From Chloroflexota bacterium (GTDB taxonomy: Bacteria > Chloroflexota > Anaerolineae > Aggregatilineales > J027), in assembly GCA_003697365.1 (NCBI GenBank), contig RFGP01000077.1:1-48548 (forward strand): a stretch of 48,548 bases of DNA, in the 5' to 3' direction. The notes under the pieces were generated by a model, which did not search any database, was not told the origin of the DNA, and was given only the letters and a program-made list of their open reading frames with translations. Shown in pieces: positions 16,522-46,839 of this stretch (its first letter is position 1; the number at the start of each line of letters is the position of its first letter). The position numbers and the translations under genes are program-made.

Positions 16522-17046
16522 TTATCGCAGATTTTTCTCTAATATCCAACAAGGCTCGTGCATTTGCACAACTTCGCCACGATGGTTCATGTATTGCCAG
16601 CGTCCTTCATCTTCACCTATAACATGATACCCCAACCTTTCATAAAGTTGACGGGCACGAATATTGGTTTTTGCTGCTGAAATCATAGCGATTTCAAAAT
16701 CACGTTCAATAAGATTTTGTTCAGCATAGTGAATGAGACGAGTGCCAATACCAAGTCCTTGCAAATGTTCCATAACGCGCAATGCATAAAGATAGCCGCG
16801 CTTATGCTTTTCTTGGTTGTGCCCTAAGGCGAGATGTAAAAATACTTGCCCTATAGGAAAGTTGTTTAATACTGCAACTAACATGAGCCGCCGACCGATA
16901 CAATGTTCTTCATATGTCCGCGCATAGACGTTGCGGAAATGTGTATACTGCCCATACCACTCAAGTTTAGGTAAGTCTTCTGGCACGAGGGGGCGCAAGG
17001 TGATCATCAAATTTATGGAAAAGATACTAGCTTGTTGTGCCATCAT
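16522..17046 (-). CDS. GNAT family acetyltransferase
   Basis: LYALRVMEHLQGLGIGTRL and NIRARQLYERLGY. Confidence 0.88.
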   Translation of the reverse strand: MMAQQASIFSINLMITLRPLVPEDLPKLEWYGQYTHFRNVYARTYEEHCIGRRLMLVAVLNNFPIGQVFLHLALGHNQEKHKRGYLYALRVMEHLQGLGIGTRLIHYAEQNLIERDFEIAMISAAKTNIRARQLYERLGYHVIGEDEGRWQYMNHRGEVVQMHEPCWILEKNLR

Positions 17047-24531: not shown

Positions 24532-25863
24532 ATGTTTAAAGAATCTCAACTTAATTATCTTTCTGCATTGATTGAGGCTCGTACAGGCTTAGATACTTTT
24601 ACACGCTATCGTCAGACTTTGATTGAGGCTCTGCAACAGGATCATATCGAAAATTTAGATGCCTATATCGCCCATTTAGAATTACTAGATCATAGCCATC
24701 CTGTTTGGCAAGCATTGCTGAATGATTTAATAATTGGCGAAACATATTTTATGCGAGATCAGCAGCAAATCTCATTACTGCGAGAGCTGGTCTTACCTGC
24801 TATTATCCAACAAAAACGACATACTACACGCCAAATACGTATATGGAGTGCTGGTTGCGCTACTGGCGAAGAAGCCTATACGCTCGCCATTTTGCTTTAT
24901 GAGTTGCTACCCGATCATAACAAGTGGGATATTTTGATTTTAGGAACGGATATTAATTGGGCAGCAATTCAGGTAGCACAAAAAGGAATTTATAAAGCGT
25001 GGTCTTTTCGTAATACTACCCCTACTTTTCAGCAAAAATATTTTATTCCACGCGCGAATGCCTATGAAATTCGCTCAGATTTGCGTCATAACGTGCGTTT
25101 TGAGCAGGCCAACCTTGTTAGTGTGAATGTGCCGCAGCAAGATTTAATTGTATGCCGTAATGTTTTATTTTACTTTACCCCTTCGCAGGCAGCAGTGGCT
25201 GAAAAACGTTTACTCCAATGCTTACAACCAAGCGGTTGGCTTTTGCTAAGTCCAGCAGAAACGCTACATCACACACGCCAACATTTTGAGATTCATACTC
25301 ATGCGCAAACGATAGTTTTTCGTAGGCGCGCAGAATCAACAACTTCAGCCTCATATCTCCCTCAACCGCTAATCCAAAACCTAGAAGATATTTATCAATC
25401 TGCTGTAGAGGCTTTTCAAACGCATCAATTTGAACTTGCGGAAATTTACTTAAATCAAATTAGTCACTTACAGATACCGAAGATTGCGTGTCTACAAGCA
25501 AGTTTGGCATTGAGCAAGGGCGACTGGGATGGTGCGAGGGTAAAACTAAATGAAACGCTTCATCTTGATCCTTTTTGGGCAGAAGCGCATTATTTGTTGG
25601 GATTGTGGCATATTCACCACGATGATCTTATTGCGGCATACACATCGCTACGCGCCGCAATTTATAGCGAACCTCGTTTTGCACTAGCATATTTGCTAAA
25701 GGGCGACTTAATGATGAAGCAGGGTGATTATAATCGGGCAACGCGCGCTTGGGAAACCGCACGACAGCTGGCGTTGGCCTTCGATATAAATGCTTATCTC
25801 AGCGATATTGCTGACGTAACCGCAGGGCAGCTTATTAATTTAGTTGAACATCGCTTGAATTAG
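24532..25863 (+). CDS. cheR: CheR-type methyltransferase with C-terminal TPR
   Basis: IGETYFMRD, RIWSAGCATGEEAYTLA, ILGTDIN, DLIVCRNVLFYF; TPR region AEAHYLLG. Confidence 0.9.
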   Translation: MFKESQLNYLSALIEARTGLDTFTRYRQTLIEALQQDHIENLDAYIAHLELLDHSHPVWQALLNDLIIGETYFMRDQQQISLLRELVLPAIIQQKRHTTRQIRIWSAGCATGEEAYTLAILLYELLPDHNKWDILILGTDINWAAIQVAQKGIYKAWSFRNTTPTFQQKYFIPRANAYEIRSDLRHNVRFEQANLVSVNVPQQDLIVCRNVLFYFTPSQAAVAEKRLLQCLQPSGWLLLSPAETLHHTRQHFEIHTHAQTIVFRRRAESTTSASYLPQPLIQNLEDIYQSAVEAFQTHQFELAEIYLNQISHLQIPKIACLQASLALSKGDWDGARVKLNETLHLDPFWAEAHYLLGLWHIHHDDLIAAYTSLRAAIYSEPRFALAYLLKGDLMMKQGDYNRATRAWETARQLALAFDINAYLSDIADVTAGQLINLVEHRLN

Positions 25864-28301: not shown

Positions 28302-29075
28302 ATGCTTCAAAATCGATTTAGTATTTATACAGTAGGCTTGTTGCTATTTTTCGCGGGGTTGGCATGTTCATTGGTTCCAGACGGAACGGTGACCGATGAT
28401 CAGCGCCTTGTGCGCCCTGAGCGGCCAGCGCTTTTGTTGTTAACGCCACAGCAAGGAAGTCGGTATGCATTAGGCACACCGGTTATTTTCCATGCTATCG
28501 CTCAAGATGCGGTTGGGATCAATCGCTTAGAGGTTCACATCGATCAACCTGAAACGCCACTTGTTCTGACGCACGTCATTGATCCACCAGCTACTGAAGT
28601 GGAGGTGTTGTTGCCTTGGATGCCACCTAATAGCCAACTCTATCTAATTAGCGTTTTAGCTTTTCGTGAGGCAGGATCGCCCTCTGATCCAAGTGATGAT
28701 ATTCCGAGTAATGAAATCTTACTTTCAATAGATGTGCTGCCAAGTAGCCAAGTTGCGCCACCACCTCCCTTTACTCCAGAAGTTGTGCCCAGCTCTACTA
28801 TAACCGTTGATAATGCGCTACCATCGATAAGCGCAGTCATTACCAGCACTGACTCTGTCCTTGTGCGGCAAGGGCCGGGCATACAATATCAAGCTGTACA
28901 AACACTCAATAATGGCGATATTTTGTCTGTTGTGGGGCGTAGCGAAGATGGTATTTGGCTGGTGATAGAACTGCCAAATGGTTTTGGATGGATTATTCGG
29001 GAGGCTGTCGTTTTGAATGGCGCAATTGAAGATTTAGCGGTTGTTGCTGCGCCTCCCTTAACAGAAAATGAGTAA
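28302..29075 (+). CDS. lipoprotein with Ig-like and SH3 domains
   Basis: Lipobox GLAC; AIAQDAVGINRLEV (Ig-like); VLVRQGPGIQY..VVGRSEDGIWL..GWI (SH3). Confidence 0.8.
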   Translation: MLQNRFSIYTVGLLLFFAGLACSLVPDGTVTDDQRLVRPERPALLLLTPQQGSRYALGTPVIFHAIAQDAVGINRLEVHIDQPETPLVLTHVIDPPATEVEVLLPWMPPNSQLYLISVLAFREAGSPSDPSDDIPSNEILLSIDVLPSSQVAPPPPFTPEVVPSSTITVDNALPSISAVITSTDSVLVRQGPGIQYQAVQTLNNGDILSVVGRSEDGIWLVIELPNGFGWIIREAVVLNGAIEDLAVVAAPPLTENE

Positions 29076-30006
29076 GGTAATGATAACGTTAAACATTTCT
29101 GCTGAAGTACAAGCTGCACTCAAAGAAAAACGCCCTGTTGTAGCGTTGGAATCAACAGTTATTTCACATGGGTTGCCATGGCCTGATAACCTCGAACTAG
29201 CGCGTACACTTGAAGCTATTATAAGGGAACAAGGCGCTGTACCTGCGACTATCGCGCTAATAGCTGGTCAGCCAACGATTGGCTTAGATGACAAACAACT
29301 AGAGTTATTAGCTAATGGCCGCGTTTCTGTTGAAAAGATAAGTCGCCGTGATTTTGGCTATGCAATCGCACGCAAACTGTATGGTGCAACGACAGTAGCC
29401 GCAACAATGATTCTAGCGCATAAAGCAGGTATTGATGTTTTTGCAACTGGTGGCATTGGGGGTGTACATCGTGGGGATAGTAACGATATTAGTGCTGATT
29501 TGCCCGAATTTGCCCAAACGCCTGTTGTTGTCGTTTCTGCTGGTGCAAAGGCCATTCTTGACTTGCCACGTACATTAGAGTGGCTAGAAACATATGGGGT
29601 TCCAGTTATTGGCTATGAAACGAATGAGTTCCCCGCTTTTTATACACGTGCTAGTGGCTTATCTTTGCCTTATCGAGCTGATACGCCTGCTGAGGTGGCG
29701 GCTATTATTTCTGCTCAGTGGTCATTTGGACTCAAGAGTGGCATCCTTGTAGCGAACCCTGTGCCACATGAAGCCGCCTTGCCTTTAGATGAAACAGAAC
29801 GCTATATTCAACAAGCGTTGCTAGAAGCCCAGCATCAAGGTGTACACGGCAAAGCGCTCACACCATTTTTATTGGCTTATTTAGCCGACATCTCTGATGG
29901 CAAAACCAAGCAAACAAATTTGGCGCTATTGAAAAACAACGCCAAAGTTGGTGCACAAATTGCCATAGCCCTTAAGGAACAACGCGAAATGTTGCTTGCT
30001 CAATAG
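29068..30006 (+). CDS. psuG: pseudouridine-5'-phosphate glycosidase
   Basis: PVVALESTVISHGLPWP, GATTVAATM, FATGGIGGVHRG, DISADL, GAKAILD, GKALTPFLL. Confidence 0.96.
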   Translation: MSKVMITLNISAEVQAALKEKRPVVALESTVISHGLPWPDNLELARTLEAIIREQGAVPATIALIAGQPTIGLDDKQLELLANGRVSVEKISRRDFGYAIARKLYGATTVAATMILAHKAGIDVFATGGIGGVHRGDSNDISADLPEFAQTPVVVVSAGAKAILDLPRTLEWLETYGVPVIGYETNEFPAFYTRASGLSLPYRADTPAEVAAIISAQWSFGLKSGILVANPVPHEAALPLDETERYIQQALLEAQHQGVHGKALTPFLLAYLADISDGKTKQTNLALLKNNAKVGAQIAIALKEQREMLLAQ

Positions 30007-30955
30007 GGGAGGTTTCTTCCCCTATGAACAGCTGTAACTCATAGTTGCCCGCATCGAAGCCTTTTTGTTGGCCGATAAAGAAAGATGTCTCGCCATTTCC
30101 AGCAGGGCCCCAAAGCGTGAATTGTTCAGCGACAAGGTTATTGTCTTTTAGCAATCGCCATCCCCAAAGCACACCTGTATTCATATTTTGATAGTGCATA
30201 AGAAAGAAAATGCGCCGAATGCCTACACTGAATGTAGCATTGGGTTTGTTTTCTTCTTCGCTTATCATGGTTTCTGTAATACCAATGATCCTTAGTTGGG
30301 CAGATTCAAGCGGCGTAGCGCGCGGGGTAACCCGTACAACACTAGATGATAAAGTTGGCAATGAGGTTTGTGTAGCAGTAGCTGTTGGGGTTATCGGAGA
30401 AGGCGTGGATGTAGCGCTGGCTGTTGGCGTTGAGCTCGCCGTCATGGTGAGAGTTTGAGTGAGCGTTTCGGTAGGCGAGGGAAGCGCTGTTGTTGAAGTG
30501 ATCGTAGGCGATGGGGTTGGGCTAGAAGTGCGCTCGTTTGTGTTGGTTGGTGTTAGTGTGCTGGTATGGCTTGGCTGGGTAGTTGCGCGACCTTGTTGTG
30601 TTGGCGTATGAGTAGGGCTCAGGGTTTCCGACGGTGAAATTGTTGGAGCTTGGGTCGTTGGTTCTGAGGTTGCCGTTGAGTTCATCACAACTTGTGTTGG
30701 TGTATCGGGTTCTGTTTCAATAGCATTGAAAATAAGAGTAGCAATGCACAGACCAAAACTCAAACTCAAGAAAAGCATTGCAAAGATAAGCATACGAAAT
30801 CCCCGTTGGCTTGCTCTGCGCCGATAAATCCAATATCGTGCACCCCGACTGCGCCGAAAAAGCCGCAATGCTAGGATGAGCAAAATAAGTCCAATTGTGA
30901 AAACGCTTGCTGTAATGACTGGTAAACGTTCAGTAAGTTCTTCTAGGGTTATCAT
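29972..30955 (-). CDS. hypothetical 2-TM protein with Thr/Pro/Ser stalk and C-terminal beta domain
   Basis: Two TM segments around an Arg-rich loop, about 120-aa T/P/S linker, C-terminal DAGNYELQLFIG. Confidence 0.75.
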   Translation of the reverse strand: MITLEELTERLPVITASVFTIGLILLILALRLFRRSRGARYWIYRRRASQRGFRMLIFAMLFLSLSFGLCIATLIFNAIETEPDTPTQVVMNSTATSEPTTQAPTISPSETLSPTHTPTQQGRATTQPSHTSTLTPTNTNERTSSPTPSPTITSTTALPSPTETLTQTLTMTASSTPTASATSTPSPITPTATATQTSLPTLSSSVVRVTPRATPLESAQLRIIGITETMISEEENKPNATFSVGIRRIFFLMHYQNMNTGVLWGWRLLKDNNLVAEQFTLWGPAGNGETSFFIGQQKGFDAGNYELQLFIGEETSPIEQATFRVVP

Positions 30956-31024: not shown

Positions 31025-31098
31025 GGGGTGTTAGCTCAGTTGGCCAGAGCGCTTCGTTGACATCGAAGAGGTCAGAGGTTCAAGTCCTCTACATCCCA
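31025..31098 (+). tRNA. tRNA-Val(GAC), CCA not encoded
   Basis: Acceptor stem GGGGTGT/ACATCCC, D-arm GCTCAGTTGGCCAGAGC, anticodon arm CTTCG-TTGACAT-CGAAG, T-arm AGAGG-TTCAAGT-CCTCT, discriminator A followed by CAT. Confidence 0.96.
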
Positions 31099-31105
31099 CA
31101 TCAAC

Positions 31106-31132
31106 ATCAGCCACCACACTAGGGTGGCTGAT
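31106..31132. terminator. hairpin between tRNA-Val and the convergent kinase operon
   Basis: ATCAGCCACC-acactag-GGTGGCTGAT followed by ATTTTT. Confidence 0.8.
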
Positions 31133-31144
31133 ATTTTTATAAGA

Positions 31145-33622
31145 TCAATCTACTGGTGGGCATGGTGGGTCAAATTCGCCTACGACTGTATCCGCAACCC
31201 ACCCTTGAATGAGCTCGCCATCGCGTGTGAGCTCAATAAAGTACCACACGACCCCGTTTCTGTCGCGCTGCTGCTCGTATACATCTCCTCTTTCATTAGG
31301 GAAGAATGTTCCAATTACTGTGCCATTAGGGGTTTCGCGAATATTCACGCCACCCACCGATGATGTAAATACTTGGCAAATATACGTTCGTGGCGTAGCC
31401 GTTGCCGTAGGTGTAAAAGTACGTGTAGGGGTGGGCGTGCTTGTGGGTGGTCGATTTGTCGCCGTTAATGTTGCTTGTGCTTGCTGCGTTTGAACGAAAA
31501 ATCCTGTTGCTGCGGCGAAGGTTTGGCTAGCAATTTGAGTGCGTACCGCTGCTGTACTGGTTTGTTGACTTAAGAATGCGTCGCGTGTAGCCGTTAGATC
31601 GATTGCGCGTTGTTCAGTTGCACGCTGATTGGCTAGGTTGATCTCTTCTTGTGTAGCAGTATTGATCGCAGCCAAAGTTTGGGCCGTACTCGTGGCAAGG
31701 GCAAAAGCCGTTGCGGTTTGCTCTTCAGGGCTAAGCGGCGTATTTGTTGGTGTGCTAGTTGCGGTTGCGGTTGGTGTATCGCTCGGCGTACTGGTAGGTG
31801 ATGGTGTATCTGTGGCCGTTGCCGTAGCTGTCGCCGTGAAAGTCATCGTTCCAGTAGGGCTTGGGGTATCGGATGGGGCAATGACACCTAAAATGGGGGT
31901 GCGATTGATATAGCCAATTGCAGCTAGAATCATTAATAAAATAATCCCTGCTGCACCCCAACTCAAGAACCGTCGTTGACGCAATGCGCGCAACTCATTT
32001 TCTAGTCGTAAGATTTCGGTGCGTCGTCCCAATACGCGGAAAGGTTCTTCTTTACAAATAGCTAGCCAGCGAGCGGCCGCTTCTATGTCACGCCGATCTA
32101 AAGCTAACTCTACGCGCTCAATATGCCGACCTAATAGCTCACCCACAAGGTTTTGGTAGCGCGGGTCTTGGGCGAAATGGCGTAATCCCGATAGCATTTG
32201 CCTTGCTTGTGCAAGTTCATTGTCAAAATTTTGAGCAATAAGTCCTGATGCGCGTTCGATGATTTGCCGTCCTTCTCGCAATTCAGTTACTAGTTGCTCT
32301 GCTTGGCGTTTGCCAGCTATTGCTTCGCTGTCGGTTGGGTCAAGCCGCGTAGCCATTGTGAATAGCTCTAGGCTTTCTTCTGCTAAGCGATATTTATCTT
32401 CTAAGGAAGATACGCCTTCGATTCGAGAAAGAGTTGCTTGGCCTTGATCAATAAGTTGTGCCTTCACATTTTGTAGATGCGCATTTGTGTCATTGACCAT
32501 TTGTTGTAAGCGCGCGCTGCCGGGTAGAACTTGTCTTAGATTAGATAAGACCGTTAATAAGTTGACTAAGCCATCAGCACGTTCCATTAAAGAGCCGCTG
32601 ATCGTACTTAGGCGAATGTTGGCTTGGTCATATTGCTCTTGAATACGCTTGACGAGCTTTATACGCTCTTCGGCTTCAGGATTATTAGGCACTACTCGTA
32701 GCGAGCCTTCATATTTACTAAGCGCTTCTGACCATTCATCTGCTGCCAATAGCCGATCCCCGTCTGCCAAAAGCTGACGCGCTAACACGAGGTCTTGGAT
32801 TTCAAGCAGTGCTTGCTCTACATCTTTCCAACTACGAATGCCGCTGCGTTCGGCAATTTCGCGCGCTTCGCGATACAAACGTTCTGCTTCTTCATAGTTG
32901 CCAGCACGGACTAAAGAATTGGCTCTGTTATAAGCAACGCGCGCATCAAAAGGGATACGATGGTCAGGTACAATGCCCCGCATTAAGTTGTCTTCAGCTT
33001 TTTGTTTAAACTCTTGCGCTTGTTCGCTTTGTGGAAGTTGTTCTGCTAATTCAATAGTTCGCTCATAGTCGCCTGCGTAATAAGTAGAAGCAATTTCATT
33101 CAATAATTCTGCTTCATTTGTGGCATCTATAGACGTTGTGTTGGTTGAAGTTGTTGGGTCGGATGCTGAATCAGATGTTGTATCTTCACTTAATGTAAAG
33201 CCATAGCGTGTTGCCAGCCCTTGCACTTTAAGCATGTGTTGAGCACTACGTTGTGCTGCTTGGTGTAATAGCTCATGAATTTCGATGTTTTCAGGATCAA
33301 GCGCAAGAGCTTCGGCTAGAATGTCAATCGCTTCATCTAAATCGCGATCGTCACCCGCTATTTCAATGCGAATGCGCGCTTTTCTTATCAAACTGCGGAC
33401 TTGCCCTACGTTTGGGTTTGTTGCTGGAATTGCGCTGCGCTGTGCTAATTGACTGAAGAGCTCACGTGCTTCTGCTTCAAAGGGCGTATTTTTACTTTGT
33501 GTGAGTAAGTTACGCGCGAGTGCTTCTAGGTCTGCGACTAGCGTTGCTGAAGGTTCAGCTGGCATCATTTCAATTTGTTGACGTAATTCATTTAATGCTT
33601 GGCGTAAATCGCTCATTGACAT
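31145..33622 (-). CDS. TPR/helical-repeat protein with one TM, Thr-rich stalk and C-terminal SH3-like domain
   Basis: AIDILAEALALDPEN, YNRANSLVRAGNYEEAERLY; TM WGAAGIILLMILAAIGYI; TPTATAT repeats; VNIRETPNG..WYFI..GWV. Start is ATG 33622 or 33616; the ORF track gives GTG 33640. Confidence 0.82.
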   Translation of the reverse strand: MSMSDLRQALNELRQQIEMMPAEPSATLVADLEALARNLLTQSKNTPFEAEARELFSQLAQRSAIPATNPNVGQVRSLIRKARIRIEIAGDDRDLDEAIDILAEALALDPENIEIHELLHQAAQRSAQHMLKVQGLATRYGFTLSEDTTSDSASDPTTSTNTTSIDATNEAELLNEIASTYYAGDYERTIELAEQLPQSEQAQEFKQKAEDNLMRGIVPDHRIPFDARVAYNRANSLVRAGNYEEAERLYREAREIAERSGIRSWKDVEQALLEIQDLVLARQLLADGDRLLAADEWSEALSKYEGSLRVVPNNPEAEERIKLVKRIQEQYDQANIRLSTISGSLMERADGLVNLLTVLSNLRQVLPGSARLQQMVNDTNAHLQNVKAQLIDQGQATLSRIEGVSSLEDKYRLAEESLELFTMATRLDPTDSEAIAGKRQAEQLVTELREGRQIIERASGLIAQNFDNELAQARQMLSGLRHFAQDPRYQNLVGELLGRHIERVELALDRRDIEAAARWLAICKEEPFRVLGRRTEILRLENELRALRQRRFLSWGAAGIILLMILAAIGYINRTPILGVIAPSDTPSPTGTMTFTATATATATDTPSPTSTPSDTPTATATSTPTNTPLSPEEQTATAFALATSTAQTLAAINTATQEEINLANQRATEQRAIDLTATRDAFLSQQTSTAAVRTQIASQTFAAATGFFVQTQQAQATLTATNRPPTSTPTPTRTFTPTATATPRTYICQVFTSSVGGVNIRETPNGTVIGTFFPNERGDVYEQQRDRNGVVWYFIELTRDGELIQGWVADTVVGEFDPPCPPVD

Positions 33623-33626
33623 TTCC

Positions 33627-34745
33627 CTATGGGATAACACGCATATTCAAATAATCATTGATTGCTTTCATCAAGCGTCGGAGTTCAAATTCCATGTCTT
33701 CATTAATACCTTCAAGAATAGCAGCATCAGTGAGTAGATCGCGAGCTTCGCGAGCTAGCTCTGCGCTTTCACGCAATTTGCTTAGCCCATTACGAACGTA
33801 TTCACGCGCTTGGATAAGGGCAGGGTGGGTGACTTGAAAACGGAACTCCCATCCAAAATGAACTGCTGCTTGTTCTACGGTTTGCAAAAATTCCTCTGCA
33901 TTCGCAAAGTCTTGATGCGCCCCACGTTCTAATAGATCAATAATGGGTTGACTGAGCATCTCTCCCGAAAAGTCGAGATGTGTGACATCATTATACCGAG
34001 TGTCAACTTCCTGTTGGCTAGCAGGTTGTGGGCGCAATTCCCCACGTTGTGGCGACATGCCTGTGAAAATTGGGTATAGGATGCCAACGCATAGATTGTG
34101 AAGGTCTTTTCGCCTGAGGTTGTTTATTTGGGCATCATGTTGCTCTAATTGTTTTGAGCTATTCCAATCAATCACTCTTAACTTTTTACCATCCCAATAG
34201 ACATGCTCCAATTTGTGATCCATGTAAAAAATATAGTTTTCATGTGCTTCTAGGAGCATGTGGCCAAATTGCATCGCTAAATTTAAGCCCTCTTCAATAG
34301 GCAAGCGACGGCGTTGCCCACTGTTGTTTGTTTTCATGACATATAACAAATTCTGCTCACGTGGCAAGTATTCTAGGGCAATATAGGGTCGCCAGCCTTC
34401 ACTGTTGCGCGGAAAAAGATTTTCTTCAAAAGCGCGCCAGTCAGTACGTAGAGAGATAATCTCGCCATCAGGATATTCATTTGAGGATTGTATATAGCCA
34501 CAATCGTAATAGCGAATAGGTACAGGATTACGATCCAAGTTTTTTAATAGTCGCACTTCATGCGGAAAGGCTTTTGCCTCCCAGCGTGGAGCTTCATCTC
34601 TGGCGATGTGCTCTGGGCGCATAATTTTGAGGGCAACCTGCCGACCGTCGCGCAAGTCATGCGCTTCAAGGACTCGCGCATAGTGACCTAGAGCAAAAGT
34701 ATCAATAAAGTTGCCGAGTGCATAAACTTCTGTAATGGTTGGCAA
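33627..34745 (-). CDS. soluble atypical Ser/Thr kinase-like protein
   Basis: LGHYARV, VALK, HEVRLL, YIALEYL, catalytic loop YMDHKLEH, VIDWN; TTG start after AAGGAAG. Confidence 0.8.
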   Translation of the reverse strand: MPTITEVYALGNFIDTFALGHYARVLEAHDLRDGRQVALKIMRPEHIARDEAPRWEAKAFPHEVRLLKNLDRNPVPIRYYDCGYIQSSNEYPDGEIISLRTDWRAFEENLFPRNSEGWRPYIALEYLPREQNLLYVMKTNNSGQRRRLPIEEGLNLAMQFGHMLLEAHENYIFYMDHKLEHVYWDGKKLRVIDWNSSKQLEQHDAQINNLRRKDLHNLCVGILYPIFTGMSPQRGELRPQPASQQEVDTRYNDVTHLDFSGEMLSQPIIDLLERGAHQDFANAEEFLQTVEQAAVHFGWEFRFQVTHPALIQAREYVRNGLSKLRESAELAREARDLLTDAAILEGINEDMEFELRRLMKAINDYLNMRVIP

Positions 34746-34763
34746 AGTTTGCTTCCTTTACGA

Positions 34764-37700
34764 CTATTCAGCAGCAAATGTAAATTGCATGTCGAGAACA
34801 ATCACATATATACCACCGCGCGATGTATATAACACTGGTATCAGCGGCGTTCCTATTGGGTAGTTGGGCTCTGAAGTGCCTAATAATTGATCTTGGATAT
34901 ATAAGGACACTGTTCCATCGTCGTTACGTTCGATACGAATGTCAACGGTTACGCTTTCATCAGTAAAACTAGTACGTTCTCGATATTGATCATTTTCACG
35001 AATGCCCCATTCAATAACATTTGCGCGCGGTATGCGAATTTCAGCAGAAACACGTTCACGCTCTGTATTTTCTACACCCAAGCCAAAATGAATGCCATCT
35101 CCAATTCCTTGAGCATCACTTGGTAATGGTAAGGCAAGATTCATCTGTGCCTCAACAACCATTAAACGATTTGCCGCGTTCTCTGTCCCATAAAGGAGCG
35201 CAATATCGGACTGTTCTATTTTTACAACAACAGGGCCGCTTTGCCGACCTTCTGCTGAATAAAGCTGCCACGGACCACCTACGCTGGCGATAAAGCGCTC
35301 TTGTCCCCAACTATAAATGCCAGCATCACTTTGATTCAGCAATGCTAGTACATCAATTGTGAGGGAGTCAGTGGTTATGGGCACACTTTGCGTGGGAATG
35401 GGCGGGGGCAATGTTTGCGTGGGCGTTGCCGTAGGCACTGTTGCTGTTGGTGTGAGGGTTTGTGTGGGTGTTGTTGTTGGCAAATCTGTTGCCGTTGCCG
35501 TAGGAGAGATGGGCGTTTCTGAAGCTGTAGGCACTATGGTAGGAATATCTGTATTGGTAGGTACTATGGCAATTTCTACTTCTTTGGTGCTTGTGGGCGA
35601 AGTGATGACAGCTATATTAGATGAACCTTCATTTTTATTTGTATCATCACTGCTTCCGAAGCCTCCTAATCCTACAAAAGCGACAATTCCCAATAATACA
35701 ACAACAACAGCAATGATAATGCCATACGGTAGGTCATTACCTGTGGACTCATCGGTGAACTCTACGTCAGCGATAGGTTCATTTGCTATAAAAGCTGGTT
35801 GATCGGGTTCTTGTGGTGATTGATTGCTTCGACGTTGCCTACGTGGTTTAGGTTGTGTATCCAATTTTTCTGTTTCTGACACTTCTGGCTGGGCGATGGC
35901 AACGTGTCCTATTTCAGTATTAGTTGGTGGCGTTTCTGCTAGATTTTGCGTGACTTCGCGCCAAATTTGGTATAGGCGATAGATTGGGTGCCGATTAATG
36001 AACAAATTAGCAAAATGATTTTTAAAATCATTTAGTTTTTCTATTTTGGTAAGGGTTTCATCTGTGTATGTATTTTTCACAGCACGATACGTTGAAAGCC
36101 ATTGCTGGACTTGATGAGCATGGCTTGGCCCTAATTGTTGTTCTGTAGCAGAAACAATTCCGATGAGCGTTTCTTCAATGGTTTCGTTGGGCGGAATATA
36201 CTGACCGGGAGGCGGAACTTTGGTCGTGTGTGCAATTTCCTCTAAGCGCAGCTTAGCTGCTTGTAAATCGGCAGCAGTATCTCGTAAGCGCCGAAGTTTG
36301 ATACGCAAGTTATCGGTATCTATAGCGCTATTGGTATTTTCTTCTAGTTGTGAAATAGCTGTATCTAGTGCATCGCGTGCTGCCTTGAATTCCCCATCTT
36401 CCCAATGCCGAACGGCAACATCAAGTTGCCGAATGGCTAGCTGAAACTGAGGCACCCATTTTTCGGCAAGGGGTGTGTTCAGTAAGGCGCGAATCTTCAA
36501 TAAATCACTAACCGTTGTTGCATTCTCAAGGGCATTATGAAGCTGACTAACTAAAGTTTGCCCTGCTAGCTGCTCTTCTAAAATTTGAAAAAGTATATTG
36601 CTCTCAACATTAGGCAATGTTTTTTGAGCCGCATTTTGCCAAAAACGGGCACTATCAAGATCGTGTTCTTGAATAGCCATCATGCCCTGAAAAACATAAT
36701 GAAGGAACAAAATACGTATACTAATACTGCTATACTCTCGTAACGATTCTAGCAAGTCATCATTAAGAGATGCGAGATAATCTTGTTCGCTACGCATCTT
36801 TGCCGTGAATTGTTCAAGCGCTTGTTGTTCTTCTCGCGTAAAGAGTTCAACAACTGCTTGTTCGGCACGACGAGTACGCTCAAAACTGGTTTGTCCTTCT
36901 TGCTCTAGCCAGTGTATAGGAATTTTACAAAGCTCTGAGAGGCGTTTAATGGTTTGTGTCTCGCCGACTGAAGTGGTTAGTGAGAAAGCTCCTTCTGTTT
37001 TGTATTCAGCATCTCGAAACTTACCTTGATCCCAAAGTTGGTAGATTTCGATGAGCTTCGCCGAAAGTTCCACATTAGGGCCCAATTGTTCTATTTGAGC
37101 AGTTGTGCGGACTACATCAGCACGTTGACGTGCCCACTGCGCGATTTTTGTATTATAAGGAGCAATGAGGCGTGCTAGTCTTATGAGATTGGCTTTGGTG
37201 GCGGCGCGGTGTCCACTGATTAAAGCATCGCTTATTTGCTGCCATAATTCGGCGCTGGTTTGTAGCGTATTTAATGCTTCATTCAGTGCTTCATCTCTTA
37301 AATCCTGCGCGTAGGGGGATAAAATCCCGATGACGCGCTCAAACCAATCACCTAAGTTTGTGCCCTCAACATCTGGAGTAAAGTTGGCAACAGCTTCAAT
37401 TGCAAGGTGAATTTCTTCAAAATAATCATGTAGTTGTTTGAATAAGTTTTGCTTGGGGTCTAGCTGATATGCTGTTTCTAAGGACTCTGTTGCTTTATCA
37501 GGTTGGCTATAAACATTTTGCGCCGCAATATCTAAATTTTTGATAATGTATGTGATGATCTCTTGAGCGCGTGCTAAAACATCTAAAGTGCGTTCATGTC
37601 CAGCATAGACAATTGGTAACGATTCTAGCTGGTGATAACCATACGTATATATATCACGTACATATGTTAGGGTTAACTCTTCTGGAACAGTGTTTAGTTT

Positions 37701-39083
37701 TGTGAGTATTTGACGCAATGTTGTTTTGGCTGAAGTCCCATCTCCCAACAGTTCTGCATCAAATTCTAAACGAGTGAGTAGTGGCCTCAATAATGCCACA
37801 TTCGGAATCATTGCTGTTAAGCGTTCAGCCAATAGTTGATTAATGAGCGTTGGGCTATTGTGTAGTAATAATGCTGCTTGATAGGGTTCGTCCTGTTCTA
37901 GCAAGTGGATAGCTGATGCCAACTCGGACGGTGGTTCATTTAACCCACGTTGTTCAAGTAATTCTGCAGCAGCTACGATGAAACGAATAACAGGGGCTGT
38001 TTGTTCATCTGCTGTATCCAACAGCGCCATCATCGTTTCCATTGCACGATACCAATTGCCATTGTCTAAGTAGATCAAAGCTGCATCAATATCTGCTAAG
38101 GTTCGTAGGCGTTGCATTTGAATTTCAATTTCACTTTGCAGAGCAGCAACTTCAGGGTAACCACTATCCATTTGACGTGCTTCATCTAGGCGTTTGGCAA
38201 GGGATTCTAGCTCTTGTTGACTGTTACGAGTGGATAATTTTTGTTTTATTTCTTGTAAAATGGCATTGCGCTGTTCTTGAAGCGGGCGACGAATTTCGCT
38301 TAATTGTTGACGCAACTCGGCTATGGTTGCATAGCGTTTGCGTAAATTGGGATGTGTGGCACGAGTGATAACTTGTTGCAAACTTGCTGGAACGTGTGGG
38401 GCATCCAGTCCAAAAATAACAGCATGTTCTCCGTCAGGACTCGTTTCACTTTCAAATCTTTTGCCACCAGTCACAATAAAATAAAGCAGTTCACCTACTT
38501 GATAAATGTCAGTTTGTCGTGTGACTTGATTGGTACCTTGTTCATCTAATAAAACAGCATTGCCCCAATCGATTACTTTCAAGCGATAGTGTTCGCGATC
38601 CCAAAAGAGATGTTTAGCGTCGACATCGTTATAAACTACTTGTTGGTCATGCGCTACCATTAACAAATCCAAGAGTTCATCAACAATGACGAGGGTCTCT
38701 AATAATGGCAGACGCTCACCTTTGCTTGCTAGCTCGCGCACTAAATCTGCGACAATTTCACCATGAGCACGGTCTAGTACAATATATTCATGCGTTTGTC
38801 CCCCCACTCGAAAAGTTCCAACATAGCGCAATTCGACAAGGGCAGGATGCCCACTCAAACGTTCAAGCGCTTTGCGTTCTGTGCGTATGCTAATTTCTTG
38901 AGCGGCGCGCATCGGGGGGGCATCTTGAGGTGCGGGGCGCTTGATTACTAACAAAATATGAGGATCGTTTATATCCCAAGCGCGCAATGTTTCGCCTGAG
39001 CGCCCACGTGGAAATATGTAATCATATTGATAGCGACCGTCAAACGTTCCAATCCGTCCACTTGAAGGTGGTGTTTCTGTCAT
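34764..39083 (-). CDS. membrane-spanning atypical Ser/Thr kinase-like protein (kinase, long helical region, TM, Thr stalk, beta domain)
   Basis: RGRSG, VIK, TERKAL, YNDVDAKH, VIDWG, DIYQVGELLYFIVTG; about 800 aa helical region; TM IIIAVVVVLLGIVAFVGL; beta-rich C-terminus (VDIRIERNDDGTVSLYI). Confidence 0.85.
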   Translation of the reverse strand: MTETPPSSGRIGTFDGRYQYDYIFPRGRSGETLRAWDINDPHILLVIKRPAPQDAPPMRAAQEISIRTERKALERLSGHPALVELRYVGTFRVGGQTHEYIVLDRAHGEIVADLVRELASKGERLPLLETLVIVDELLDLLMVAHDQQVVYNDVDAKHLFWDREHYRLKVIDWGNAVLLDEQGTNQVTRQTDIYQVGELLYFIVTGGKRFESETSPDGEHAVIFGLDAPHVPASLQQVITRATHPNLRKRYATIAELRQQLSEIRRPLQEQRNAILQEIKQKLSTRNSQQELESLAKRLDEARQMDSGYPEVAALQSEIEIQMQRLRTLADIDAALIYLDNGNWYRAMETMMALLDTADEQTAPVIRFIVAAAELLEQRGLNEPPSELASAIHLLEQDEPYQAALLLHNSPTLINQLLAERLTAMIPNVALLRPLLTRLEFDAELLGDGTSAKTTLRQILTKLNTVPEELTLTYVRDIYTYGYHQLESLPIVYAGHERTLDVLARAQEIITYIIKNLDIAAQNVYSQPDKATESLETAYQLDPKQNLFKQLHDYFEEIHLAIEAVANFTPDVEGTNLGDWFERVIGILSPYAQDLRDEALNEALNTLQTSAELWQQISDALISGHRAATKANLIRLARLIAPYNTKIAQWARQRADVVRTTAQIEQLGPNVELSAKLIEIYQLWDQGKFRDAEYKTEGAFSLTTSVGETQTIKRLSELCKIPIHWLEQEGQTSFERTRRAEQAVVELFTREEQQALEQFTAKMRSEQDYLASLNDDLLESLREYSSISIRILFLHYVFQGMMAIQEHDLDSARFWQNAAQKTLPNVESNILFQILEEQLAGQTLVSQLHNALENATTVSDLLKIRALLNTPLAEKWVPQFQLAIRQLDVAVRHWEDGEFKAARDALDTAISQLEENTNSAIDTDNLRIKLRRLRDTAADLQAAKLRLEEIAHTTKVPPPGQYIPPNETIEETLIGIVSATEQQLGPSHAHQVQQWLSTYRAVKNTYTDETLTKIEKLNDFKNHFANLFINRHPIYRLYQIWREVTQNLAETPPTNTEIGHVAIAQPEVSETEKLDTQPKPRRQRRSNQSPQEPDQPAFIANEPIADVEFTDESTGNDLPYGIIIAVVVVLLGIVAFVGLGGFGSSDDTNKNEGSSNIAVITSPTSTKEVEIAIVPTNTDIPTIVPTASETPISPTATATDLPTTTPTQTLTPTATVPTATPTQTLPPPIPTQSVPITTDSLTIDVLALLNQSDAGIYSWGQERFIASVGGPWQLYSAEGRQSGPVVVKIEQSDIALLYGTENAANRLMVVEAQMNLALPLPSDAQGIGDGIHFGLGVENTERERVSAEIRIPRANVIEWGIRENDQYRERTSFTDESVTVDIRIERNDDGTVSLYIQDQLLGTSEPNYPIGTPLIPVLYTSRGGIYVIVLDMQFTFAAE

Positions 39084-39223
39084 AGAAAGCTCCAGCTAAT
39101 CTCTAAAACCACTGCTAATTGTACTAGTGCGATATTTTTTTTCAACTTCACTATTAGCCTATTGATGCTATAATTTCTCGATAAGATGTTAAAAGGTTTA
39201 GTGTAAAAGGATACCAAAACCCC

Positions 39224-40186
39224 ATGAGTGCAGCTGCTTTACCGCGCAATGCGGGTATTCCACTAGATTTATCATGGGTCGAAAGTGTGCGCGTCAATAC
39301 AAGTGCAATTGAACGACGAACTGCCACTTTGACCAAGCGACGCTCTGTCAAAAAAGATTGGCAGGCAGCATGGCTGTTAAAAGCCATTACTATGATCGAT
39401 TTAACAACGCTATCAGGAGATGATACTCCCGGTAATGTCGCGCGTTTATGTGCAAAAGCGCGCACACCGCTTCGGCATGATATGCAATCAGAACTAGGCT
39501 TGCAAGTTGGCACATTGCATACAGCTGCTGTATGTGTATATCATGCACGTCTTGCAGATGCGATTGCAAATTTGAAAGGCACAAATATTACCGTTGCCGC
39601 TGTTTCAGCAGGATTCCCCGCTGGACTAAGTCCTTTTCCACAACGTATTGCTGAAATTCATGCAAGTGTTGCTGAAGGCGCTGATGAGATCGATATTGTT
39701 ATTACTCGTGAACATGTTTTGCGGGGGAATTGGAAGGCTTTATATGACGAAGTGCGCCAAATGCGAGAAGCATGTGGAGAGGCACACATGAAAGCCATTT
39801 TAGCAACAGGTGAACTGGGCACATTGCGCAATGTAGGCAAGGCGAGTTTGGTCTGTATGATGGCTGGGGCTGATTTTATTAAAACTTCGACAGGAAAAGA
39901 AACTGTCAATGCAACGCTAGAAGTTGGTTTGGTCATGGTTCGTGCGATTCGTGAATATTGCCAACGCACAGATTATCGTGTCGGATTTAAGCCAGCAGGA
40001 GGTATCCGAACGGCGAAGGATGCACTGAACTGGTTGATCTTAATGAAAGAAGAATTAGGTGACGAATGGCTGAGACCTGATTTATTTCGTTTTGGTGCCA
40101 GCAGCTTGCTAACGGATATTGAGCGCCAACTATCGCACTATCTAACAGGGCGTTATGCGGCTCGCCATCATATGCCAATGGGATAA
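39224..40186 (+). CDS. deoC: deoxyribose-phosphate aldolase (long form)
   Basis: IDLTTLSGDDT, AAVCVY, GADEIDIVI, HMKAILATGEL, ADFIKTSTGK, GFKPAGGI, FRFGASSLL. Confidence 0.96.
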   Translation: MSAAALPRNAGIPLDLSWVESVRVNTSAIERRTATLTKRRSVKKDWQAAWLLKAITMIDLTTLSGDDTPGNVARLCAKARTPLRHDMQSELGLQVGTLHTAAVCVYHARLADAIANLKGTNITVAAVSAGFPAGLSPFPQRIAEIHASVAEGADEIDIVITREHVLRGNWKALYDEVRQMREACGEAHMKAILATGELGTLRNVGKASLVCMMAGADFIKTSTGKETVNATLEVGLVMVRAIREYCQRTDYRVGFKPAGGIRTAKDALNWLILMKEELGDEWLRPDLFRFGASSLLTDIERQLSHYLTGRYAARHHMPMG

Positions 40187-42721: not shown

Positions 42722-45700
42722 TTATTCAATAATACGAATATTATCAATCCACCAACCTTCTCTTGGCCCATCACTTGTTAAGGCATCAAGCCGGAATCTG
42801 AATGTCACCAAATTACCCGCATAAGGTGTGAGGTCTGCAGTCATTGTTTCCCAATTGAGATCTGTTCCACTTGTTCTTTGGTAAATAGTTGTCCAAGTGA
42901 AACCACCATCGGTTGAGACATCAAGGTTAATACGATGATTATTGCCCAGATCGTAGCGCTGATCCCAATACAGCGTATAGTTACTACTGGCAGGAATGTT
43001 GACAAGCCCTTCAAGTTCAACAACGGACTCTGTGCGTCGGTCATAATTTCCTGATGGGCTATCGGTGAACATCTTGCTTTCACCTTCGATATTGAAGATG
43101 AAGTCCGATGAGCCCTTGTTATGGATGAAGTGTACCATCACCGTCACATTGCCAGCTGGGAAATTGATAGGTGGAGAAGTAAAGCTCTCTGAAACACCGC
43201 AATTAAACCATCGATGTTCATAGGTGGGGTTACTAAGGTCCGGCAATGTTCCAGTAGGATATACCCAAACGCGCACACCATCATCAGATAGACCTGAAAA
43301 TTGGTACGTTGTCGCTGCTGGAATATAGAAGTTACGAATGAACACTGCTCCCCAACGGTTATCTACAGTGATACCATTGCTTGAAGGTGTGCCATCACTC
43401 CAAGTGAAGTTGATTTCATCAAGTGTAGATGTTCCTACTTGAGAGCCGAAGTCTATATAGGCACTACCACTGCAACCTCGACCGTTATCATACCATTCAA
43501 CATCCCATTGACCGGGACCAAGCGATGGGCCACTTCCAAAGCTGCGATATTCTGTAACAACATCCCACTCGTGCTCAAGGACAAACTCACCGGGATTGAG
43601 AGCCTCTATGTCCTCATTGTAGGGGGGGATATAGGTAGCTTCTTCAGTACGACTGATAATTTGAACATCGTCTAGATAAGCACCATCTCTACCGCGGTTA
43701 TTAAGGCTTTGGGCTTGCCAACGCACACGGATGTTTTGACCGATGTAAGGCCGTAAGTCAACTTCCATGCGATGCCAGCCATCGTTGCGTACATTTTCTA
43801 ATTGTGTACTCGGAACTGCTGTCCAGTCAGAGAGCAAGCGCCCAGCGGCATCTGCAAGTGCAATTTCTACTTCCCAATGTAATCTGTTGCGACTAATGTT
43901 ATATTTTGTCCAATAGTATAGTGCGGGATCAATGGCTCCTGTCAGGTTTACAGTCGGACGAAGCTCTATGATGCCAGTTTCATCAACTTGCATATTGCCC
44001 GGTGTGTCTTCCCAAGAATAGGTACCGCTATGAGCTGTTGAGCTTGTGATTTGCCATTTTCCGCTTGTATACCAGTTGAAAGTTCCCGCTTCCATATCAT
44101 CCGCAAATGGTAGGGTGATAAGTGGTTCTGGCATGTCTAAGAAACAGAAGGTATCAATGTACCAACCGTCTTCTTCGACGCTACCATTGGCAAATAGGCG
44201 GAAGCGTATCTTAAGGCCGGGTACACCGGGGGCTGTTGTACCAATATAAGGCGTTAGGTCAATGACTTCACGCATCCATGATTGAACTTCATCGAGTCTT
44301 TCATCATATTGCGGAATTGAGACATCCCAATATGGATATGGATCAAGTTTGTTTTGCCCCGCGAAGTTATTATCATTGTCAATAAAGCTGAAGACCTTTG
44401 TCCATGAGAAACCATCATCGGGCGAAATTTCAACGACAAGCTCGTCATCCGAGTCGTCACCTTCTCTGATGTCCCATTGATGGTAGAAGGTCACTACAGG
44501 GCGTGTCATAGAGTCAATCTCAAGGTATGGAACGAACTCAGCTGTATAATTCGAGTTTCTCGCGTAGTACCCTGAGGGGCTATCTGTTAAGGCAAATGCG
44601 CCGTCTCGAACAATACTGCTGGTAAGTCCCCAATTTCCATTGAGTACCCAATTGGCTGTTCCACCGTCAAAAGTATCACAGTCTCCTACACCTGCTGTGA
44701 CAGTTGGCTTATTACGGAACTCAATATCATCGATAACCCACCCTTGATCGGTGTTGCTGCCATCTGTCTCTAGGCGGAAGCGAATATAAACGCGGGATTG
44801 CCCGATGTAAGAAGCAGGGATTGTTGCGACTGCTTGTGTCCAGCTTTCAACAGCAATATCACCAGTTGCCATTGGGCCGGGAGGTTGATACCCAAAAATG
44901 GAACGGGTTTCAAGAGGTGACCAATTTATTTTATCGGTTGAAATTTCAACATAGATACGATCAACAGGGTCAAGATCAACATACTGCCAAAATACTACTT
45001 CAGGCGCAGTCACAGGTACTGGACTGCTGGAAGACAAATCCAAGCGTCCATTTAGACGTATGCTGGTGTTGGTATTGTTTTGGTAGTTTGAACCCGGGCT
45101 GTCATCCCAAGCTGTACCAGAGCGTGCTCTAGCATTAGAGACTGTCCATGTGCCTTCTGGTATCCAGTGATCAGCAGTATCAACAGGGTCTTGGAAGCCT
45201 AGATAGTAGGGTGTTTCAGGGATTTCTCGAATACTAATATCATCGATCCACCATCCATCACGTTCATTACTATTGTCGCTTCGCATGATAAAGCGCAATT
45301 CAATGCGATTTCCGCGGAAGTCAGTTAAACCACCTAGATCATCGGCAAAGCGTGCCAAGTCAATACGCTGACGAGTAAATGTCCAATTAGTGACAGGGCC
45401 GTCATGAACAGTAAGGAATTTCCAATCATCAGTGCCCTCAATGGCGATTGCAACTAAGGCTTTGTCAAAGCTATTGATGTCATAGCGATCATAGAATTCA
45501 AGATAAGGTTCTACGGCACCTGTTAGATCAACAGTACCGCGCAGACGCATCACACATTCTTGGTTACGGAAGTAATAGCGTCCGACACTGTCATGCCATG
45601 AGGGTGGTGATGTATTACCTGTACCGCTGTCTAGTTCCCAATTACAGGCTGGTGTAGTGTTTTCTGTGCTCTTGTTCATCGTTACGGTGAGGCGGCCAGC

Positions 45701-46663: not shown

Positions 46664-46839
46664 CAACCGCTATCCTTTATCTCAAAATTCGTTTATTTTC
46701 GGAATGAGGTCTCGAAAATCTATACTAATGTTACCTGACCCCTGCTAAAATTTGAGCCATAAATTTGTCGGCATTTGTAGGAACTCTTTTACAAAAGCCG
46801 TTTTGCTAAGATTTCTGAACAAATTGGGGACAATATATT

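Follow-up and report, generated by a model that had tools for sequence, protein, structure and literature searches.

Two atypical Hanks-type kinases and a TPR membrane protein as a candidate envelope-signalling module of Anaerolineae (Chloroflexota)

What do two highly divergent kinase genes and a gene for a TPR membrane protein do side by side in a Chloroflexota genome, and do they do it together? The question is raised by contig RFGP01000077.1 of a Chloroflexota bacterium (assembly GCA_003697365.1), of which we analysed a stretch of 48,548 nucleotides (nt), positions 1 to 48,548, hereafter the window. On its minus strand, the list of open reading frames (ORFs) contains three co-oriented genes in the order A, B, C. 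As far as sequence comparison can tell, the best-supported statement is that A, B and C are one functional unit, because they have a common presence/absence profile, keep their gene order across about 25% identity and occur in two kinds of fusion. Beyond this, we favour, with a probability of roughly 0.55, the reading that they form, as three subunits, a single membrane signalling module of Anaerolineae that is lineage-specific and fixed in the chromosome, working by the mechanism proposed below.

Gene A (34764..39083, minus strand) encodes 1439 amino acids (aa) from an ATG start, and gene B (33627..34745, minus strand), 18 nt further on, encodes 372 aa from a TTG start. The longest ORF of gene C (31145..33640, minus strand, 831 aa) begins at a GTG at 33640 and overlaps B by 14 nt. 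Because the alignment of C orthologues and a public protein record both begin at the ninth residue of this ORF, the start of C likely lies at the conserved Met at 33616 (31145..33616, minus strand, 823 aa), 10 nt after B. The initial annotation had given spacings of 18 and about 4 nt; the first is exact, and the second applies only if an alternative Met two codons upstream of 33616 is used. The three-gene set that it delimited is real: it is present in the ORF list, and full-length orthologues of A, B and C in dozens of genomes argue that the triad has not arisen by chance.

We searched 41 related genomes, from the Anaerolineae order whose named members include Aggregatilinea. B was matched in 32 of them at E<=1e-3, in 31 over its full length at E<=1e-108 and in the last, the 69%-complete genome G008, by a weak match only. 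The helical region of A found matches in 32 relatives and the cytoplasmic region of C in 31, and all three genes are absent from the same nine genomes (families f3, f4 and f5). The three presence/absence profiles are identical over the 41 genomes except for G008, and the triad is present in all searched genomes of five families, namely f1 (18/18 for A and B), f2, f6, f7 and f8. The A and C queries gave one match in most genomes and two in some, the latter where parts of one gene lie on different contigs or the query hit it in two pieces. In its own genome, B matches only itself and A.

Gene order is largely retained as well. Among 14 loci fetched to span the families, A-B-C is contiguous in ten, two from family f8 hold only A-B with C elsewhere, and two from family f6 hold B alone. 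In one genome (G035), all three are kept though unlinked, scattered over a single 3.6-Mb contig at about 70 kb, 283 kb and 2705 kb. In 12 of 13 loci, A and B are -4 to 97 nt apart; the exception is L018, where the longest B ORF begins 31 codons ahead of the aligned start and therefore overlaps A by 83 nt. Between B and C the gaps are 10 to 148 nt in 11 loci. The neighbourhood conservation on which the initial annotation had made its interpretation depend is therefore found at three levels, in the contiguity of most loci, in co-occurrence across relatives and in the order kept by distant lineages. In a wider census, matches appeared in 8/301 and 9/401 genomes of two phylum samples and in 18/401 genomes of a class sample. 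These counts, obtained at strict E-values and with four candidates per genome scored in the class sample, are a lower bound, because divergent forms such as the CFX6-type triad described next are missed.

Family f10 of the same class, whose genomes are 2.0-2.6 Mb in size, has the same order A'-B'-C' with much shorter proteins. Its A' (932-969 aa) consists of a kinase and a helical region, with no transmembrane segment or ectodomain; B' (336-415 aa) is without the three-helix tail seen in B; and C' (605-663 aa) has TPR, a transmembrane segment, a stalk and a small domain. In Chloroflexi bacterium CFX6 the genes are likewise separate and keep the order, with an A-type protein of 599 aa, a B-type protein of 395 aa and a C-like protein of 463 aa. 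Here the A protein has a kinase, a transmembrane segment, a stalk and a beta-rich ectodomain, whose comparison with the A ectodomain of the window gave an hhalign probability of 30%, and the long helical region is absent.

Fusions of the components occur as well. A profile search of 1.84 billion representatives returned 232 proteins at E<=1e-10, and 25 among the best 150 of these 232 are 980-1079 aa long with two kinase stretches. The two of these that we read carry A-type motifs in the N-terminal half and B-type motifs in the C-terminal half. In genome G401, a C homologue (hhalign 99.8%, E 2.7e-28) begins 7 nt behind such a fused gene. The second kind of fusion is represented by protein P0154, which contains two B-type domains, then a stretch matching the invariant core of C (hhalign 86%, E 5e-6) and then a transmembrane segment. 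Of 11 loci with P0154 relatives, 10 have an A-type kinase upstream of the B-type gene, and all 11 have a C-like region downstream or fused.

We built a tree of 32 kinase domains from 8 of the 13 A and 8 of the 15 B orthologues, all three f10 pairs, three fusions cut into halves, the two P0154 domains and 2 of the 22 canonical kinases of the genome. An A-type clade (support 95/88) is separate from a B-type clade (100/98). The N-terminal halves of the fusions group with f10 A' (100/100) and their C-terminal halves with f10 B' (100/99), and under midpoint rooting the two canonical kinases stand beside the B-type clade. The A and B trees branch in parallel.

Two further sets of matches were noted. 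Loci L057 and L061, on contigs of about 6 kb labelled Flavobacteriales and Candidatus Doudnabacteria, hold an Anaerolineales-type A-type kinase with B-C genes whose products are 43-52% identical to Chloroflexota proteins; these contigs have probably been misbinned, and gene transfer is the less likely explanation. In family f127, weak B-type matches (E 1e-15 to 1e-17; G514:C329:6940-7497 and G477:C305:1741-2148) sit within very long ORFs of 1686 and 828 aa, which may represent another fused architecture.

Protein A is composed of a kinase-like domain, a helical region of about 750 aa, a transmembrane segment, a Thr/Pro stalk and a concanavalin-A-like ectodomain. This is the layout that had initially been read from its sequence, and Pfam, hydropathy, composition and a predicted model now agree on it. 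The kinase-like domain (about residues 1-300; 38184..39083, minus strand) contains K48, Y-N-D153-V-D-A-K157-H158 and D172-W-G. Its Pkinase match covers residues 60-200 with 37.5 bits (Pfam cut-off 31.7), and its profile alignment with PknB spans residues 64-265. The following cytoplasmic helical region (residues 300-1060; 35904..38186, minus strand) belongs to no known family and is possibly TPR-like: no Pfam family was matched in the window protein, weak TPR matches occur in 2 of 13 orthologues, and Atlas gave weak TPR leads with a score of at most 0.88. No PDB sequence matched this region below E 0.02, and a relation to the helical region of C is undetectable (hhalign probability 6%). The transmembrane segment (residues 1121-1139; 35667..35723, minus strand) has a Kyte-Doolittle mean of 3.15 over 19 residues and is followed by the Thr/Pro/Ser-rich stalk delimited by a composition scan (residues 1158-1252; 35328..35612, minus strand).

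The ectodomain of A (residues 1228-1439; 34767..35402, minus strand) is predicted as a beta-jelly-roll of the concanavalin-A-like lectin/glucanase superfamily, with a predicted local distance difference test score (pLDDT) of 84.3. Foldseek places it close to GH16 lichenases, legume lectins and CBM66, at E of about 5e-7 to 1e-5 (3d6e, E 4.8e-7). In VIA-align, the best entry is 5joz_B, the beta-sandwich of a GH43 enzyme (Z 13.3, root-mean-square deviation 3.9 Å, 170 residues), followed by GH16 enzymes, PL7 lyases, legume lectins and CBM66 at Z 11-12. Overall, 50 entries aligned at Z 13.3-10.7 over 144-187 residues, and nearly all are carbohydrate-active or carbohydrate-binding proteins. The model thus has a carbohydrate-binding or -processing fold, in line with the initial proposal that A senses surface glycans. 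Only eight columns are invariant in the alignment of this domain.

Protein B is a soluble, atypical Hanks-type kinase with a three-helix tail, as first described: its model has a kinase fold with helices at residues 308-326, 328-342 and 349-368, and a hydropathy scan found no hydrophobic segment. The Pkinase score of 30.2 bits is slightly under the Pfam cut-off of 31.7. The predicted model is bilobal (pLDDT 89.1), and the nearest solved folds are those of PknB and PknA (Foldseek E 1e-9, template-modelling score (TM-score) 0.72-0.77 on target). The tail (33630..33848, minus strand), whose helices between residues 308 and 368 are confidently modelled, closes with the motif R-(V/P/A)-I-P, in which the I-P does not vary and which reads RVIP in 12 of 15 orthologues. 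For the last three residues the pLDDT falls below 50, consistent with a flexible C-terminal end.

Protein C has a cytoplasmic TPR/helical region, a transmembrane segment, a long Thr/Pro stalk and a small Cys-bracketed ectodomain. The cytoplasmic region (31961..33616, minus strand) contains a near-invariant core that includes V-P-D-H-R-I-P-F, and it passes the Pfam cut-offs of TPR_11 (33.2 bits, cut-off 26.8), TPR_1 (32.1, 27.8), TPR_2 (31.7, 27) and TPR_19 (28.9, 25). The same core can be made out in the C homologue of G401 and in the fused protein P0154. Atlas neighbours of the cytoplasmic region, by features and by structure, are generic TPR proteins with a TM-score of at most 0.34. A hydropathy scan placed the transmembrane segment at residues 558-584, numbered from the GTG (31889..31969, minus strand), and a composition scan placed a Thr/Pro/Ser-rich stretch at residues 576-772, giving a stalk of about 200 residues. 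The last 95 residues (31148..31432, minus strand) form a putative SH3b-like ectodomain in which C747 and C819 are invariant. Its match to SH3_3 (PF08239) is weak (E 0.002, 18.7 bits against a cut-off of 27, residues 27-80 of the 95). The TPR/helical region, membrane segment and Thr stalk of the initial annotation therefore stand, and its SH3 assignment is a weak one. It had also reported no phosphatase, FHA or PASTA domain in the triad, and our Pfam/NCBIfam scan of A, B and C likewise gave no match to these families.

The active sites of both kinases depart from the consensus in similar ways. A and B are the most divergent of the 24 kinases of their genome: in a common scan they gave the weakest Pkinase matches (38.9 and 27.5 bits), the other 22 scoring 85.7-202.8 bits. 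The motifs of B are K40, D176-H-K178-L-E-H181 and D193-W-N195. Profile alignments to PKC-iota and PknB place D176-H-K178-L-E-H181 of B and D153-V-D155-A-K157-H158 of A onto the HRDxKxxN catalytic loop. The catalytic Asp is kept in both (D153 in A, D176 in B), and the loop Asn at +5 is replaced by His in both (H158 and H181). The loop Lys at +2 is present in B as K178; A has D155 instead and a Lys, K157, at +4. Neither protein thus has the complete HRDxKxxN loop, and the residues that they do have are invariant. The β3 Lys of the VAIK motif is invariant too (K48 in 13 A sequences; K40 in 15 B sequences, and in 17 with f10 included), as is the Asp of the DFG position (D172-W-G in A, D193-W-N in B). 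All these catalytic residues are invariant in the 13 A and 15 B orthologues, and those of B remain so when relatives of 25-27% identity are added.

The activation segment is largely missing, because about 21 residues that PknB has between DFG and helix F are lacking in A in the profile alignment. Between the DFG Asp and the Asp of helix F, the spacing is 20 residues in A and 21 in B, and a full-length segment ending in APE is seen in neither. With the catalytic Lys and both Asp kept, the Asn changed to His and most of the activation segment absent, A and B lend themselves to testing what a minimal or altered active site of the Hanks type can do.

How such parts might work together can be proposed as follows. 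The core would be the pair of very divergent Hanks-type kinase domains, A-type and B-type, acting together, with C as a bitopic TPR protein whose conserved cytoplasmic core would sit next to the B-type kinase. The ectodomains of A and C would bind an envelope carbohydrate (peptidoglycan, sheath or surface polysaccharide), and the ligand state would rearrange the cytoplasmic helical/TPR scaffolds of the two proteins. The arrangement of the scaffolds would in turn control an A/B kinase heterodimer at the membrane, to which B may dock via its tail and conserved C-terminal end. The A/B pair would then phosphorylate cytoplasmic targets, to be read by FHA proteins (29 matches in the genome) and reset by PP2C phosphatases (3 matches), both encoded elsewhere. 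We infer the physical complex, its ligand, catalysis, the targets and a physiological role in the control of envelope or filament growth: envelope carbohydrate is suggested as the input because the ectodomain folds point there, and phosphotransfer as the output because the catalytic Lys and both Asp are conserved. On the whole, the triad looks like a lineage-core envelope-signalling module of filamentous Chloroflexota and not like a mobile or defence element.

Several points weigh against this proposal. Since the related genomes are not independent of one another, the co-occurrence profile may go back to only one or two events of gain or loss. The f10 A' has no membrane segment or ectodomain, the CFX6 A no long helical region and the f10 B' no tail, so a mechanism that needs the anchor of A, its helical region or the tail of B cannot be general; as these other parts vary, the constant core comprises both kinase types together with the membrane-anchored core of C. 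The exchange of the metal-binding Asn for His in both kinases, the Asp in place of the loop Lys in A and the shortened activation segment are departures from the catalytic consensus by which A and B may be weak kinases, non-protein kinases or pseudokinases. On the outer side, the SH3 assignment of C falls below the Pfam cut-off and is weak, and a lectin/glucanase fold in a predicted model does not establish sugar binding by A. Finally, the flanking genes are variable and give no consistent functional hint.

The same active-site departures could mean that one or both kinase domains are pseudokinases, with the A-type regulating the B-type in a non-catalytic scaffold or switch whose output is the assembly of envelope machinery. 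The dominance of large TPR/helical scaffolds in A and C would suit such a role, as would the position of A and B at the bottom of the genome's 24 Pkinase matches, with B below the Pfam cut-off. The β3 Lys, catalytic Asp and DFG Asp speak for catalysis, being invariant in both types even at 25-27% identity, and a His is in principle able to bind metal. Conserved bacterial pseudokinase families are described in the main text of an atlas of bacterial Ser/Thr kinases, and the attenuated activation loop of one of these families favours the scaffold reading; against it, in all seven families the β3 Lys, the very residue that A and B retain, is reported as replaced in part or all of the members (bioRxiv 10.1101/2025.01.12.632604). 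We regard a purely scaffolding role as possible, if on the doubtful side. A substrate other than protein is also conceivable: A and B might phosphorylate small molecules or lipid-linked envelope precursors within a membrane-bound complex that modifies surface polysaccharide. The activation segment, by which protein kinases position their peptide substrates, is shortened in both, A has an ectodomain of glycan type, and peptidoglycan genes lie near the triad in two distant lineages (MurJ in G401, a Mur ligase in an f10 genus). These cell-wall neighbours are not conserved across lineages, however, both kinases retain helices of the C-lobe, whose alignment with PknB runs through to the domain end, and the nearest folds are protein kinases and not aminoglycoside- or choline-kinase-like enzymes, all of which makes this alternative quite unlikely.

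Defence signalling had been offered at the outset as one possible purpose of the triad. A multi-gene kinase operon of unassigned function could be an anti-phage or conflict system of the kind of PD-T4-6 or Stk2, and PADLOC does match A, with 59.7 bits at best, to PD-T4-6 (8.4e-17) and B, with 32 bits at best, to PD-T4-6 (2.4e-8) and mad6 (2.9e-8). Two ordinary kinases of the same genome match the same models at 1e-82 and 1e-77 (272.6 and 255.7 bits), so the matches reflect the kinase fold in general; for C, PADLOC gave no match at all. The triad is moreover fixed in five families, with mostly a single match in every genome searched, its surroundings are housekeeping genes, and the A and B trees branch in parallel; among the window ORFs scanned there was no transposase gene, integrases and flanking repeats not having been looked for. 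We reject a defence role, which is very improbable. The view that A, B and C are mere syntenic neighbours with independent functions can point to the broken gene order in families f6 and f8. It would have to explain the identical presence/absence over 41 genomes (the incomplete G008 excepted), the same order at about 25% identity and the fusions of A with B and of B with the C core, and we give it next to no credence.

A membrane signalling module of three subunits thus remains the reading that we prefer, and it can be pushed further. In a bolder version, A-type and B-type would form an obligate heteromeric "split tandem kinase" with new catalytic-loop chemistry (His for Asn, and in A a Lys moved by two residues), clamped at the membrane by C and gated by lectin-like and SH3-like ectodomains that read the sheath or wall. 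It would be the master growth or septation checkpoint of filamentous Anaerolineae, in the place held by PASTA kinases in Firmicutes and Actinobacteria. We put this forward as speculation that is unlikely to hold in full.

The PASTA receptor Ser/Thr kinases (PknB of Mycobacterium tuberculosis, StkP, Stk1) are the closest point of comparison. Like them, A has an N-in bitopic layout with a cytoplasmic Hanks-type kinase, one transmembrane segment and an extracellular domain of envelope-glycan-binding type, in A by fold only. PknB and PknA, the nearest solved folds of B, are also the best PDB sequence matches of A (E 2.4e-12). The differences are considerable. PASTA repeats are absent, and NF033483 scores 57.4 bits for A and 19.9 bits for B against a cut-off of 450, at kinase positions only. 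In A, a concanavalin-A-like ectodomain takes the place of PASTA, and a helical insert of about 750 aa separates the kinase from the membrane. The triad also has a His for the loop Asn, a short activation segment and an obligatory second kinase and TPR membrane partner.

In plants, signalling by a receptor kinase, a receptor-like cytoplasmic kinase and a co-receptor brings together a membrane kinase that bears an ectodomain, a soluble kinase, and another membrane protein that has an ectodomain of its own. A, B and C would follow the same logic, and the "receptor kinase plus cytoplasmic kinase" parallel drawn in the initial annotation is a fair analogy, with the qualification that both kinases are atypical. 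Homology to the plant system is limited to the kinase fold, the topology of A is inverted (kinase N-terminal, ectodomain C-terminal), the third component C is without a kinase, and the triad has no evident activation-loop phosphosites. Tandem kinase or kinase-pseudokinase chains are known from JAK (JH1-JH2) and from plant tandem kinase proteins. The A-B fusions likewise join two divergent kinase domains, of types long kept distinct, in one chain; they differ in being bacterial, in having their kinase domains 400-700 aa of helical region apart and in keeping the Lys and both Asp in both domains. A literature search for a bacterial Hanks-type tandem kinase returned no paper. The ectodomain of A, in turn, has its fold in common with the concanavalin-A-like superfamily (GH16, legume lectins, CBM66, the C-terminal beta-sandwich of GH43), from which it is set apart by a sequence identity of 5-17% and by having no Pfam match.

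Among bacterial Ser/Thr kinases with a C-terminal TPR region are PknG and, in the kinase atlas, the families Strep1, Strep2, GN-NS1 and Myxo1 (bioRxiv 10.1101/2025.01.12.632604). These resemble A in that a kinase is followed by TPR-like helical repeats, thought to serve protein-protein contacts, and differ from it by a catalytic triad and loop that are canonical as far as the main text of the atlas describes them (10.1101/2025.01.12.632604). A paired second kinase and a separate TPR/transmembrane/SH3 partner go unmentioned in its main-text passages, as do the words DWG, lectin and tandem (10.1101/2025.01.12.632604); the triad may yet fall within one of the 42 families of the atlas. Our literature searches, whose scope did not extend to the supplementary tables of 10.1101/2025.01.12.632604, found no description of this family or triad; within the literature searched, the opinion that it is not a described system is upheld.

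Fixed in whole families and variously fused, the triad is a strong candidate for a core envelope-signalling device of Anaerolineae. If the proposal is correct, the PknB-type wall sensors would have in it a counterpart without PASTA; should A and B prove to be kinases of an ordinary kind and role, the gain would be a new family annotation and nothing beyond. Anaerolineae, which are filamentous, abound in sediments, hot springs and wastewater sludge, and to our knowledge almost nothing has been done on their molecular cell biology. Experiments are feasible, because the cultured relative Aggregatilinea lenta has an orthologue of B.

In the window, the surroundings of the triad are housekeeping genes (DeoC, an aldehyde dehydrogenase, FolD, a sigma-70 factor and a tRNA). 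Upstream of A, the operon is bounded by the divergent gene recognized initially as deoC (39224-40186, plus strand), which has a DeoC/LacD-family match at E 4.5e-22. A candidate promoter of the operon (39118..39145, minus strand) is a sigma-70-like TTGAAA, 16 nt, TACAAT, which agrees with the consensus at 10 of 12 positions as a pattern match only. At the 3' end, the operon is bounded by a convergent tRNA-Val(GAC) found with ARAGORN (31025..31099, plus strand). The hairpin at 31106..31132 had been taken for the operon terminator, a reading that we do not retain: it has its T-run on the plus strand and lies 7 nt past the convergent tRNA, and is thus the terminator of the tRNA. For A-B-C it is at best a hairpin with no U-tract, not a canonical terminator.

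Gene E (29972..30955, minus strand), beyond the tRNA, encodes a 327-aa protein with two transmembrane segments, a 150-residue Thr/Pro stalk and a beta-rich C-terminal domain of about 100 residues, which has no Pfam family match. It is found beyond C in 7 of 14 loci and may be a fourth, accessory surface component in a transcription unit of its own. Of 10 orthologous loci scanned, 7 (L018, L019, L020, L022, L023, L026 and L027) have, like the window, the tRNA-Val(GAC) antisense beside C, and these are exactly the loci that also hold gene E. A convergent tRNA within the co-oriented block between C and E is an unusually stable insertion.

A scan of flanking genes (42 ORFs from 11 loci and 11 ORFs from two further loci) turned up isolated neighbours, namely MurJ, a Mur ligase, a LysM-PKD protein, PP2C, FHA, and a cyclic-nucleotide-binding protein with a HEAT protein, none of them conserved across lineages. 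The MurJ gene is divergent and upstream in G401, and the Mur ligase gene is downstream in two genomes of one f10 genus. In two loci from one genus of the same family (L017, 597-4407; L024, 3-3808), two genes on the strand of A immediately precede it without a gap. One encodes a protein of about 1080 aa with a C-terminal cyclic-nucleotide-binding domain, the other a 187-aa protein that has a HEAT-repeat match in L024 only. The operon thus seems to be longer in that genus.

The genome to which the window belongs (3.1 Mb) has 24 Pkinase, 29 FHA and 3 PP2C matches, a dense Ser/Thr signalling network for its size. Elsewhere in the window, an 878-aa ORF (17043-19679, minus strand) has a fused architecture of a DHH/DHHA1 phosphoesterase, CBS and a poly(A) polymerase/CCA-adding head with its RNA-binding part. 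A 1314-aa ORF (42722-46666, minus strand) with an InhA-like MAM domain and a terminal reelin subrepeat-B domain probably encodes a large secreted or surface protein. Nearer to the triad are genes for a 257-aa protein whose bacterial SH3 domain passes the cut-off (28302-29075, plus strand) and for a CheR methyltransferase fused to TPR repeats (24532-25863, plus strand); neither is conserved beside the triad in other families. Six sequencing runs contain the stretch, all of them of DNA, five labelled as hot springs metagenome and one as wastewater.

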